From a virus (taxonomy: Duplodnaviria > Heunggongvirae > Uroviricota > Caudoviricetes), in the IMG/VR virus record IMGVR_UViG_2531839237_000024: a stretch of 5,096 nucleotides of DNA. One strand, 5' to 3'. Below the pieces are notes generated by a model, which searched no databases, had not been told where the DNA came from, and was given only the letters and a program-made list of their open reading frames with translations. A program made the position numbers and the translations under genes. Of this stretch, positions 13 through 3,464 are shown one piece after another. The stretch's first letter is position 1. Every line of letters begins with the position of its first letter.

Positions 13-2025
13 TTGATGAAAATGCCAGAAGTTAACGCCATGTATCCTGAACTTAAACTGCATGCCATCGGGTGGGTTAAGCATAAATGTGAGCCTGGCG
101 CTAAATGGCCTGAAATTCAGGCAGAGATGCGCATCTGGAAAAAACGTCGCGAAGGTGAACGCAAGGAAACCGGAAAATACACGTCTGTTGTTGATCTCAC
201 CCGCGCCAGAGTCAACCAACAGAACACTGAAAACGCTGCTGAAAAAACCGGGGCTGTCACTGTTGCCATTCGCCGCGAATACAAACAGACATGGAAAACA
301 CTCGACAATGAACTGGCCTGCGCCCTCTGGCCCGGTGATGTGGATGCAGGAAACATTGACGGTACCATCCATCGCTGGGCGACAAATGAGGTTATCGACA
401 AGGATCGCGAAGACTGGAAGCGTATCTCAGCATCAATGCGCAAACAGCCCGAAGCACTTGGCTATGACCGTCAGACTATTTTTGGCCTTGTTCGCGAACG
501 TCCGATCGATATTCACAAAGATCCCGTTGCACTGAACAAATATATCAGTGAATACCTGACGACAAAGGGCGTGTTTGAACATGAAGAAACAGACCAGAGC
601 TCTACTGATGCTCTCCAGCCGTCAGCAGCACAAACTGCTCCAGTGGAGACGGCAGAATCCGATACTCAAAAAAATGAAATCCTGGTGGAAGCTGAACCAT
701 CTGTAGAGCGTGAAGGACCATTTTATTTCGTCTTTACCGATAAGGGCGGGGAAAAATACGGCAGGGCAAACAAACTTTCTGGTCTGGACAAGGCGCTGGC
801 TGCCGGCGGTACCGAAATCTCAAAAGAAGAATATTTTGCCCGAAAAAATGGCACATACACGGGCTTACCGCAAAATGTGGATACCGCTGAAGATTCCGAA
901 CAATCAGAGCCGGTAAAAGTTACCGCTGACGAAGTAAACAAAATTATGCAGGCAGCCAATATCAGCCAGCCTGACGCCGATAAATTGCTTGCTGCATCAC
1001 GTGGTGAATTTGTTGAAGGGATTAGCGACCCGAATGATCCGAAATGGGTGAAAGGGATCCAGAGTCGCGACGCTGAGGACCAGAATCAGCCCAACGTGAA
1101 ACAAAATGAGCCAGAAGCGGAACAAAACAGCCCGGATACGCAACAAAACGGGCCAGAAGAACAACAACCAGAACCAGCAGTGCAACAGGAACTGGAAAAA
1201 GTTTGCACCGCATGCGGTCAGACCGGTGGCGGCAACTGTCCTGACTGTGGTGCGGTGATGGGGAACGCAACCTACCTGGAAACATTCGATGAAGAGAATC
1301 AGGCTGAAGCTCAGAAAAATGATCCGGAGGAAATGGAAGGCACTGAACATCTGCACAAGGAGAACACTGGCAGCGATCAGTATCACGCCAGCGATAATAA
1401 AACTGGCGAAACAGCAAATCCCTTAATTAAAGTGAACGGTCATCATGAAATCTCATCCACCAGCAGGTTGTGGCACCATCTGATGATTGACCTTGAAACA
1501 ATGGGAAAAAATCCTGATGCGCCAATAAACTCTATAGCCGGTAAGTTTTTTGATCCGGCAACCGGAGAGATGGGGCCAGAATTCAGCAAAACTATCGATC
1601 TGGAAACCGCAGGTGGGGTCATCGATCGGGACACCATTAAGTGGTGGCTGAAACAGTCACGCGAAGCACAATCCTCCATTCTGACCGATGAAATCACGTT
1701 GGATGATGCACTGCTGCAATTCCGGGAATTTATCGACGAAAACTCCGGTGAATTTTTTGTTCAGGTCTGGGGTAACGGTGCAACTTTCGACAACGTGATT
1801 TTACGCCGTTCATATGAACGGCAGGGGATCCCCTGCCCGTGGCGTTACACCAATGATCGCGATGTAAGAACGATGGTTGCTCTGGGACTGGTGATGGATT
1901 TCGACGCAAGAACGACTATTCCATTCGAAGGTGAACGCCATAACGCCCTGCACGATGCGCGTTACCAGGCAAAATACGTTTCAGCCATCTGGCAAAAACT
2001 GCTCCCGAGTCAGGCTGATTTTTAA
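13..2025 (+). CDS. Multi-domain prophage accessory protein: unknown N-terminal domain, acidic repeat linker, CxxC-x7-CxxC zinc ribbon, C-terminal DEDDh (DnaQ/RNase T-like) 3'-5' exonuclease domain
   Basis: Uninterrupted 670-codon frame. C-terminal region (about aa 485-665) carries DEDDh exonuclease motifs in the right order: MIDLET (nt 1483-1500), WGNGATFD, HNALHDA. The start is uncertain: the track uses TTG at 13, ATGs follow at 16 and 22, and the frame is open back to nt 1, so the gene may begin upstream of the window. Confidence 0.8.
   Translation: MMKMPEVNAMYPELKLHAIGWVKHKCEPGAKWPEIQAEMRIWKKRREGERKETGKYTSVVDLTRARVNQQNTENAAEKTGAVTVAIRREYKQTWKTLDNELACALWPGDVDAGNIDGTIHRWATNEVIDKDREDWKRISASMRKQPEALGYDRQTIFGLVRERPIDIHKDPVALNKYISEYLTTKGVFEHEETDQSSTDALQPSAAQTAPVETAESDTQKNEILVEAEPSVEREGPFYFVFTDKGGEKYGRANKLSGLDKALAAGGTEISKEEYFARKNGTYTGLPQNVDTAEDSEQSEPVKVTADEVNKIMQAANISQPDADKLLAASRGEFVEGISDPNDPKWVKGIQSRDAEDQNQPNVKQNEPEAEQNSPDTQQNGPEEQQPEPAVQQELEKVCTACGQTGGGNCPDCGAVMGNATYLETFDEENQAEAQKNDPEEMEGTEHLHKENTGSDQYHASDNKTGETANPLIKVNGHHEISSTSRLWHHLMIDLETMGKNPDAPINSIAGKFFDPATGEMGPEFSKTIDLETAGGVIDRDTIKWWLKQSREAQSSILTDEITLDDALLQFREFIDENSGEFFVQVWGNGATFDNVILRRSYERQGIPCPWRYTNDRDVRTMVALGLVMDFDARTTIPFEGERHNALHDARYQAKYVSAIWQKLLPSQADF
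1081..1185 (+). repeat. Five tandem degenerate 21-bp repeats inside the large CDS, encoding heptapeptides QNxPxxx
   Basis: Translation reads QNQPNVK / QNEPEAE / QNSPDTQ / QNGPEEQ / QPEPAVQ, with recurring caaaa(c/t)...cc(a/g)ga units in the DNA, immediately upstream of the zinc-ribbon codons. Confidence 0.7.
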
Positions 2026-2083: not shown

Positions 2084-2287
2084 ATGAGCAGCATATTTTT
2101 AACCGAAAATGAATTGCAAACGTTAACGGGCTGCAAATATGCAAGCCACCAGCGCAACTGGTTAATAAAAAATGGGCTTCCGTTCTATACCAATCGTAGT
2201 GGAAAACCGATCGTCAGTCGGGAACTGTTTACCTGTATAAAAACTTTACCACCACGTGAGGCTGAACCTGATTTCGGTGCGATCTAA
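2084..2287 (+). CDS. Small DUF4224-family protein, putative excisionase/recombination directionality factor
   Basis: 67-aa ORF directly upstream of int. The N-terminal pattern FLTxxELxxLTGxK...WLxxNGLPF...GKPIV matches my recollection of DUF4224 proteins found next to prophage integrases. Its stop overlaps the int start (TAATG at 2285-2289), indicating translational coupling. The excision function is inferred from position only. Confidence 0.75.
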   Translation: MSSIFLTENELQTLTGCKYASHQRNWLIKNGLPFYTNRSGKPIVSRELFTCIKTLPPREAEPDFGAI

Positions 2288-3366
2288 TGGGAAGACGAAG
2301 GAAAAATCCCGAACACGAAAAATTACCGCCAAAGGTATACCCCAATAAATATAGTGTATGGAAACCGACATCCAGAGAATCTGTAACCTTAACTGCAATC
2401 GAGGATGGTTTAGCCGCATTATGGAAAAAGTATGAAGAAACGGTTAACCATCGCGATCGCGCAATGACATTTGGGCGTTTGTGGGAAAAATTTCTCGCCA
2501 GCGCCTATTACAGCGAGCTTAGTCCTAGAACTCAAAAAGATTATCTGCAACATCAAAAAAAGCTGCTGGCCGTATTCGGTAAGGTGCTGGCCGATTCTGT
2601 AAAACCAGAGCACATCAGACGATACATGGACAAAAGAGGCGAGCAGAGTAAAACGCAGGCAAACCATGAAAAAAGCAGTATGTCGCGCGTTTATAGTTGG
2701 GGGTATGAGCGAGGATACGTGAAGGCTAACCCATGTGCAGGTGTAAGTAAATTCAAGGCCAAAAACCGCGAACGATATGTAACCGACAAAGAATACCAGG
2801 CAGTATTAAGCGTTGCACCTCTTCCTGTTTTTATCGCAATGGAAATTGCCTATCTGTGTGCAGCGAGGGTTTCCGATGTGTTATCGCTGAAATGGGAGCA
2901 GATTGGAAACGACGGGATCTTTATCCAGCAAGGGAAAACAGGGAAAAAACAGATAAAAGCATGGAGTCCACGATTACAGGCGGCGATCGAAAAAGCAAAA
3001 CAGTTACCAACATCCGCCTATGTAATCAGCAATCAATACGGCAACCGATATATGTACAAAGGCTTTAACGAAATGTGGGTAGAAGCAAGAAATCACGCAG
3101 GCAAAATTTCAGGTATTTTAACCGACTTCACCTTTCATGATCTGAAGGCGAAAGGAATTTCAGACTATGAAGGAAGCAGCCGGGATAAGCAACTTTTCTC
3201 TGGTCACAAAACCGAAGGGCAAGTGCTAATCTATGACAGGAAGGTTAAAGTTTCACCAACACTTGATGTCCCGTTACCTGAAAATATTCCAAGAAAATAT
3301 TCCAAGAAAATATTCCAAGTAATTCCAAGTGTGATTTTTGTCACTGACTTAATGATGTGTAAGTGA
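2287..3366 (+). CDS. int: Lambda-family tyrosine integrase (site-specific recombinase)
   Basis: 359 aa. N-terminus MGRRRKNPEHEKLPPKVY resembles the lambda Int arm-binding N-terminus MGRRRSHERRDLPPNLY. Catalytic residues align with lambda Int at R194, K217, H284, H307 and Y316 with matching spacing, except that K287 sits where the second catalytic Arg is expected. Ends 8 bp from the tRNA-Ser 3' end. Confidence 0.93.
   Translation: MGRRRKNPEHEKLPPKVYPNKYSVWKPTSRESVTLTAIEDGLAALWKKYEETVNHRDRAMTFGRLWEKFLASAYYSELSPRTQKDYLQHQKKLLAVFGKVLADSVKPEHIRRYMDKRGEQSKTQANHEKSSMSRVYSWGYERGYVKANPCAGVSKFKAKNRERYVTDKEYQAVLSVAPLPVFIAMEIAYLCAARVSDVLSLKWEQIGNDGIFIQQGKTGKKQIKAWSPRLQAAIEKAKQLPTSAYVISNQYGNRYMYKGFNEMWVEARNHAGKISGILTDFTFHDLKAKGISDYEGSSRDKQLFSGHKTEGQVLIYDRKVKVSPTLDVPLPENIPRKYSKKIFQVIPSVIFVTDLMMCK
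3280..3329 (+). repeat. Three perfect tandem copies of 13-bp gaaaatattccaa plus a degenerate fourth copy, within the 3' end of int; candidate arm-type Int binding sites
   Basis: Perfect copies at 3280-3292, 3293-3305 and 3306-3318, then gtaattccaag at 3319-3329. They lie about 45-95 bp from the tRNA 3' end, comparable to the direct-repeat arm sites beside the lambda att core. The repeat is certain; the arm-site role is inferred. Confidence 0.8.
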
Positions 3367-3374
3367 TTGAATTT

Positions 3375-3464
3375 TGGCGGAGAGAGGGGGATTTGAACCC
3401 CCGGTGGAGTTGCCCCCACTCCGGTTTTCGAGACCGGTCCGTTCAGCCGCTCCGGCATCTCTCC
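3375..3464 (-). tRNA. serU: tRNA-Ser (anticodon CGA), class II tRNA with long variable arm, 90 nt
   Basis: Minus-strand reading gives GGAGAGATGCCGGAGCGGCTGAACGGACCGGTCTCGAAAACCGGAGTGGGGGCAACTCCACCGGGGGTTCAAATCCCCCTCTCTCCGCCA. A 5-bp anticodon stem (CCGGT/ACCGG) encloses the loop CTCGAAA, giving anticodon CGA, and the 3' CCA is encoded. Adjacency to mtfA and tRNA-Asn matches my memory of the E. coli serU locus. Confidence 0.93.

Follow-up and report, generated by a model that had tools for sequence, protein, structure and literature searches.

In the attachment site of phage lambda, the record of which was checked here, the arm-type sites of the integrase (Int) comprise P1 (direct) and P2 (inverted) in one arm and P'1 to P'3 in the other, the latter being direct repeats spaced 10 and 11 bp, with P'3 overlapping the int stop codon. 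The IntS-TorI system of KplE1/HK620/Sf6, which acts at argW, has a tRNA-gene-integrating integrase of the two-site-binding type, as is predicted for the system analyzed here; in the KplE1 module the P' arm-type sites are located in attL beside the tRNA 3' end, where they overlap features of the int gene, and attL overlaps the int promoter, leading to autoregulation (PMC2951348). The attP of Salmonella phage ST64B, whose Int is 57% identical to that of prophage Sp14 of Escherichia coli O157:H7, has been recombined in vitro (PMC12455584); in 12 of 19 passages of that article matched for attP, arm and integrase, arm sites are not described. Likewise, literature searches for serU, attP and arm-type sites and for the repeat sequence found no description of the arm sites of Sp14-type integrases. 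Sp14 of strain Sakai makes circles at low level after treatment with mitomycin C (PMC2669165), and therefore its recombination module is active. Here, a tandem repeat array at the 3' end of the Sp14 int gene was analyzed, and we propose, with a probability of roughly 85%, that its ATTCCAAG boxes are lambda-type, P'-arm arm-type sites to which Sp14 Int binds through its N-terminal domain.

Results

The analyzed stretch of DNA (hereafter the window; 5,096 nt) matched E. coli O157:H7 strain TR01 at 100% and contains the right end of a lambdoid prophage, followed by serU, mtfA, and tRNA-Asn. The prophage sits between yodB and serU in TR01 and carries espJ and an EspF-repeat (tccP-type) gene, and the Sakai reference record labels the same element 'prophage Sp14, lambda-like phage'. 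The window shows prophage Sp14 at its int end, i.e., at the int-side junction of the integrated state (Table 1). The stop codon of the DUF4224 gene overlaps the start of int, and homologues of this gene were found upstream of int in all relatives, being named excisionase in mEp390 and Fostie. As for the truncated exonuclease gene at the other end of the window, a domain match was obtained only for the C-terminal 170 residues (Rv2179c-like 3'-5' exoribonuclease, E=2.5e-62), and the acidic and Gln/Pro-rich middle of the reading frame was without family match.

Table 1. Features of the Sp14 int end in the window; distances in the last column are counted from the centre of the anticodon loop.
Feature	Position	Strand	Remarks
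'Exonuclease' gene, part	13-2025		3' part of a 2,472-bp gene
DUF4224 protein, 67 aa, likely excisionase/recombination directionality factor	2084..2287	+	Pfam PF13986, E=3.8e-15
Tyrosine integrase of Sp14, 359-aa allele	2287..3366	+	Pfam PF00589, E=6e-11
13-bp units GAAAATATTCCAA, three	3280..3318	+	two in most carriers, one in some
Extra outermost ATTCCAAG box	3286..3293	+	-143; from unit duplication; missing in the common allele
Predicted arm-type Int site, P'3 equivalent	3299..3306	+	-130; distal box of KpF5, BUCT708, Chris1, ST64B, and Evi at the same position
Predicted arm-type Int site, P'2 equivalent	3312..3319	+	-117
Predicted arm-type Int site, P'1 equivalent	3322..3329	+	-107; within the 10-bp 'degenerate' copy
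IHF-like site, H' equivalent, ATTCAATCACTTA	3360..3372	-	one mismatch from WATCAANNNNTTR
tRNA-Ser(CGA) gene serU, reconstituted by the prophage	3375..3464	-	three-way junction alignment
Block common to phage and bacterial attachment sites	3375..3435	.	identity ends after GAGACC; imperfect similarity to 3360
Strand-exchange interval	3420..3435	.	holds anticodon loop TTTCGAG (3426-3432) and stem halves

The integrase family profile could be aligned to residues 1-342 of lambda Int (1z1b), starting at MGRRR..LPP..Y, with a whole-protein E value of 5e-20, which suggests homology over the full length including the N-terminus, and profile position 319, corresponding to the catalytic Tyr316 of Sp14 Int (nt 3232-3234), pairs with lambda Y342. 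An arm-binding N-terminus of the lambda type had been ascribed to Int in the initial annotation: the alignment from residue 1 speaks for it, whereas the Pfam models of arm-binding domains gave no match in the N-terminal 79 residues, and the assignment of this domain, which would correspond to residues 1-64 of lambda Int, is therefore based on the profile alignment to lambda Int. In the 359-aa form 43 residues follow the catalytic tyrosine. The repeats had been placed in the codons of this tail, which holds for the allele in the window, the long tail being exclusive to it. The array is translated in all three frames, giving the tail ...PENIPRKYSKKIFQVIPSVIFVTDLMMCK*. Homology of Int among the relatives ends at ...YDRKVKVSPTLD, residue 327 (nt 3267), before the array, and the tails beyond this residue, which are 3-32 residues long, are unrelated; thus, the array is not conserved coding sequence. 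Two imperfect tandem repeats were also noted in the int coding region, namely at 2560-2602 (21-bp unit, 2.1 copies, 86% identity) and at 2935-2958 (11-bp unit, 2.2 copies, 84% identity).

The presence of three perfect tandem 13-bp units and a degenerate copy, as initially described, was corroborated by Tandem Repeats Finder (3280-3319, period 13, 3.1 copies, 100% matches, score 80; second call at 3312-3330, period 10, 1.9 copies) and by a further repeat search, and boxes of the form ATTCCAAG(A/T) start at 3286, 3299, 3312, and 3322, i.e., with spacings of 13, 13, and 10 bp. All four copies of the 8-mer ATTCCAAG in the window lie within the array; shuffled versions of the window contained 0.33 matches on average and none of 200 reached four. 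The four-box array is located 46-95 bp from the serU 3' end, practically the distance given before (45-95 bp). In the common two-unit allele described below, translation of int stops at the TAA at 3320-3322. The near-consensus IHF-like motif that had been noticed on the minus strand between the repeats and the tRNA gene was recovered as well.

The position of strand exchange was derived from the comparison of both prophage ends with prophage-free K-12. At the far prophage end a partial copy of serU ends after GAGACC; its left flank is identical to that of K-12, and it has the K-12 bases, A and T, at the two variable-arm positions. The intact serU in the window has G3409 and C3419 instead, a compensatory pair in the variable-arm stem that replaces the K-12 A/T. 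The phage-type bases on the int side, together with the bacterial bases at the far junction and in K-12, imply that strand exchange took place within 3420-3435, and the int side up to at least 3419 is phage DNA according to this alignment. Contrary to the initial placement of the att core at the tRNA 3' end, the crossover is thus located in the anticodon stem-loop, about 54 bp inward of that end, and it follows that the boxes are approximately 100-143 bp from the crossover and not 45-95 bp. The portion of the tRNA gene present in attP reaches from the 3' end to the anticodon stem, and the gene is restored by the prophage. The anticodon stem halves flanking the loop are candidate core-type Int sites. 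The serU of the lysogen is a phage/bacterial hybrid, and the ARAGORN call for it stays tRNA-Ser(CGA).

The serU 3' flank of K-12 and O157 (locus L020, 192-266; identical in locus L002, 3721-3795) looks like a fossil P' arm: about 56 bp from the end of the tRNA gene it contains CCTTCAAGAATATTCTACG, which resembles a degraded ATTCCAAG array, and at the H' position its minus strand matches the IHF consensus perfectly (TATCAATGACTTA). The window has no counterpart of this flank since at the int-side junction the P' arm of the prophage itself lies beside the tRNA 3' end.

When the motif was sought in the opposite prophage arm, outside the window, it was found twice, inverted (TTTGGAAT) at +47 and in direct orientation (GAATATTCCAAGC) at +113 from the centre of the anticodon loop. 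This far arm is located at about 2574854-2575000 of TR01 (NZ_CP033605.1). The exact 10-mer ATATTCCAAG has only four copies in 49.9 kb of TR01, three of them in the array and one in the far arm. A diverged copy of the Sp14-type P arm, with both boxes at unchanged offsets, is present in phages ev099 and mEp332; the direct box of mEp332 has a point change (ATTTCAAG). In both phages (ev099, locus L008, 2230-2700; mEp332, locus L007, 2040-2510) the E. coli yodB-serU flank is followed by a serU 3' fragment and the Sp14-type P arm. They were rejected as relatives with an intact attP, the stretch being actually a prophage-chromosome junction of bacterial flank, core, and P arm, and it looks like a captured junction. 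The ev099 junction is 2.4 kb from an integrase that is absent among the relatives at E<=1e-30, the two being separated by a transposase and an AraC-type regulator, and no integrase is annotated in the mEp332 stretch examined. Hence, ev099 and mEp332 served solely as additional copies of the P arm.

Relatives were collected among free phage genomes by translated search with Int residues 1-327 (47-61% identity), and the attachment regions of Sp14 and seven phages were compared. Of the seven, three have serU as their target (KpF5, Chris1, and ST64B), two a tRNA-Ser(UGA)-like gene (BUCT708 and Evi), and two a tRNA-Leu(UAA)-like gene (ZF40 and mEp390). A repeated non-core motif was present in both attP arms in all eight, a number that counts partly non-independent phages, as the Int proteins of KpF5 and ST64B share 87% identity in each of the two regions compared. 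Six of the eight phages, Sp14 included, have three tandem direct boxes on the P' side, beside the tRNA 3' end, at -131, -118, and -108 (to within 1 bp), the spacing in the relatives being 13 and then 10 or 11 bp; the arrays of ZF40 and mEp390 lie farther out, behind a hairpin, with two exact copies in ZF40 and four boxes in mEp390. In the P arm, an inverted box is found at +46/47 and a direct box at +110 to +113, except that BUCT708 is without a good direct box and Evi without a good inverted one. In shuffled arms the probability of such a P-arm match is 0.1-1.3% per position, and matches were seen in seven of the eight phages at each position, the position windows having been set after the first two phages were seen. 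IHF consensus matches (<=1 mismatch), i.e., predicted bending-protein sites between the arm boxes and the core, were detected at -69, +24, and +79 in most of the eight phages; the position of the H'-like match is kept in six (-69/-68 in five, -82 in a sixth).

The box motif, in each of the eight phages the 8-mer with the most copies in the P' arm, differs between them: ATTCCAAG in Sp14, ATTCTAAG in BUCT708, TTTTCTCA in KpF5 and ST64B, TATACCAA in Chris1 and Evi, ATTAGGAA in ZF40, and ATGGCGAA in mEp390. The relation of the boxes to int is not constant either. They lie downstream of the int stop codon in KpF5 and ST64B, and in Evi (locus L013, 1920-2210) the whole attachment site is inverted relative to int, unlike in the seven other phages, so that the triplet is located beyond the tRNA fragment and a hairpin, on the far side from int and outside any int codon. 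As to whether the repeats are conserved independently of the int reading frame, the comparison of related phages showed that the architecture is kept, but neither the motif nor its relation to the int frame.

Identity of the N-terminal 58 residues of Int was 26-37% between groups with unrelated motifs, as compared to 44-64% for the remainder of the protein. The N-domain identity was highest in pairs with the same or nearly the same motif, namely 87% for KpF5-ST64B, 52% for Chris1-Evi, and 48% each for Sp14-BUCT708 and Sp14-Chris1. By contrast, the DUF4224 proteins of BUCT708 and ZF40 are 64% identical and the motifs of these phages differ, whereas those of Sp14 and BUCT708 are 37% identical and the motifs match in 7 of 8 positions.

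In the serU subgroup a further box, TGTCACTGA / GGTCACTGA / AGTCGTTGA / CATCACTAT, was noted between P'1 and the IHF-like site (about 3333-3350 in the window; -92 to -78 in KpF5, Chris1, and ST64B), which resembles the lambda arm consensus AGTCACTAT; the window sequence at 3336-3344 (TTTTGTCAC) is the inverted partner of 3203-3211. This GTCACT-like box at about -88 was considered as an alternative arm site and rejected because it is present in a single copy per site and in the serU subgroup only, where the whole stretch is alignable.

The number of 13-bp units was surveyed in 5,426 complete E. coli genomes, 1,153 of which carry the Sp14-type int 3' end. Two units were found in about 1,056 genomes (92%), including Sakai, three in about 26-33 (TR01, TW14359, EC4115, SS17, SS52, and others), and one in about 41; all three alleles occur within O157:H7. 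In the two-unit allele there are three boxes at spacings of 13 and 10 bp, in agreement with the architecture of the family. Three perfect units had been described initially; judging from this distribution the standard state is two units plus the short copy, with the third unit a derived, lineage-specific minority allele attributed to slippage. The set of three-unit genomes includes two non-O157 strains on a diverged int background, suggesting that this allele may have arisen independently more than once. The alleles appear to be common to strain groups (e.g., TW14359, EC4115, SS17, and SS52), which suggests that slippage events are rare.

Because 13 is not a multiple of three, each allele ends Int differently. 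With two units the protein ends ...PENIPRKYSK* after 340 aa, at a stop inside the array; with three units it is 19 residues longer and ends at TGA 3364-3366 (359 aa); with one unit it ends ...PENIPSNSKCDFCH* (344 aa). In strain 112 (locus L003, 301-1348) the automated annotation marks the two-unit int as a 'frameshifted' pseudogene, and the rarer alleles, with three units or one, appear in the annotations as intact genes; the label is an artefact of the reference protein compared.

Discussion

The initial annotation regarded the repeats as likely arm-type Int sites, and this view is strongly supported by the occurrence of the motif in both arms, the conserved layout, and the covariation of the motif with the Int N-domain, all of which come from comparison of sequences. 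The layout is that of lambda in most respects. Both sites have five predicted or known arm-type boxes in the same order and orientation, with a distal direct and a proximal inverted box in the P arm and three tandem direct boxes on the int side, spaced by roughly one turn of the helix; the boxes and the core are separated by IHF-like sites, and the outermost P' box overlaps the end of int, so that the overall order P1-H1-P2-H2-core-H'-P'1-3 is the same. Thus, the parallel to the three direct-repeat arm sites of lambda that had been drawn initially extends to box order and orientation on the lambda record. The differences concern motif, target, and dimensions: the motif is ATATTCCAAG in Sp14 and C/AAGTCACTAT in lambda; Sp14 targets a tRNA gene with the crossover in the anticodon stem-loop, unlike lambda; and the arm lengths are swapped in magnitude, the P' boxes being 100-131 bp from the crossover as compared to 55-84 bp in lambda, the inverted box 47 bp as compared to 103-111 bp, and the direct box 113 bp as compared to 133-141 bp. 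The triplet spacing is 13 and 10 bp instead of 10 and 11 bp and, unlike in lambda, where X/F follows P2 and precedes H2, no Xis or Fis sites were identified in the Sp14 site. In comparison to the KplE1 module, where the P' sites are similarly placed beside the tRNA 3' end, Sp14 int is transcribed towards the attachment site and the arm overlaps the int 3' end, and no promoter overlap would be expected. ST64B shares with Sp14 the serU target and identical box positions, but differs in its arm motif and in having its boxes downstream of the int stop codon.

Tandem direct repeats at intervals of roughly a helical turn are a typical feature of Xis-type sites, such as lambda X1/X1.5/X2, and directionality factors often bind tandem direct repeats in one arm. 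It might be asked, then, whether the boxes are bound by the excisionase-like DUF4224 protein rather than by Int: the spacing of the array would fit, the gene is directly upstream of int in every relative, and since both genes are co-inherited much of the covariation is confounded. We consider this unlikely, because the motif is not confined to one arm but present in both, once inverted, exactly in the topology of the lambda Int arm sites, and because its specificity does not follow the directionality factor, as seen from the pairs BUCT708/ZF40 and Sp14/BUCT708. Int is favoured as the binding protein because the motif tracks the similarity of its N-domain and not that of DUF4224.

The position of the repeats within the annotated int reading frame could point to conserved coding sequence for a functional C-terminal tail of Int, for which we see next to no chance: the 13-bp unit is read in three frames, the similarity of homologues is lost at residue 327, the commonest allele stops inside the array, the three alleles result in three unrelated tails, and the boxes lie past the int stop codon in KpF5 and ST64B and across the tRNA fragment in Evi. 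A functionless, slippage-prone microsatellite in a dispensable int 3' end would agree with the copy number of one, two, or three among E. coli strains, even within O157:H7, and with the lack of conservation of the downstream reading frame. However, such a microsatellite would leave unexplained the copies at fixed positions in the other arm as well as the three-box architecture of 13 and 10 or 11 bp that recurs with other motifs in other phages, in one of them in non-coding DNA, and it is therefore very improbable as an account of the whole array. The third unit itself may well be neutral, whereas the boxes are not random.

Taking the boxes as arm-type sites of Int, we propose the following model, in which the occupation of the sites by Int and IHF and the function of each site are inferred from the comparative data. 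On the int side, the attP of the free phage would comprise the int 3' end, the direct boxes P'3-P'2-P'1 spaced 13 and 10 bp, and the IHF-like site H'; the serU 3' half would come next, with strand exchange in the anticodon stem-loop, and the P side would hold two more IHF-like sites, at +24 and +79, with the inverted box between them at +47 and the direct box beyond them at +113. The N-domain of Int on the boxes and bending by IHF between them would deliver the catalytic domains to the core, and integrative and excisive complexes would be built as in lambda. In the allele of the window, replication slippage has added one 13-bp unit and thereby a fourth, outermost box, and the resulting shift of the int frame leads past the usual TAA to a stop 18 codons later. 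The extra box is probably tolerated, since in the three-unit allele neither the spacing of the three core-proximal boxes nor their distance from the core is altered. That the 13-bp unit acts as a heritable slippage switch, in which the number of boxes (2, 3, or 4) and the Int tail (340, 344, or 359 aa) change together and tune or disable the mobility of Sp14 across O157:H7 lineages, is a speculation to which we give little credence; if true, it would act on the mobility of an effector-carrying prophage (espJ, tccP).

Although the concepts of site-specific recombination are unchanged by these results, the copy number of the unit is a small marker that separates sublineages of O157:H7, and the 'frameshifted' label of the two-unit int in at least one genome is explained as an annotation artefact. 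Taken together, the Sp14 site is predicted to be a standard lambda-type attachment site of an integrase family for which the literature searches had found no site description, and by comparison alone a layout of five arm boxes, three IHF-like sites, and a crossover interval in the anticodon loop could be predicted. This layout would apply to a widespread family of enterobacterial integrases targeting tRNA-Ser and tRNA-Leu genes, which includes those of Sp14/CP-933U from E. coli O157:H7 and of Salmonella phage ST64B, and the N-domain/arm-motif pairs that occur naturally in this family, at least six in number, may be used to study or re-engineer arm recognition.
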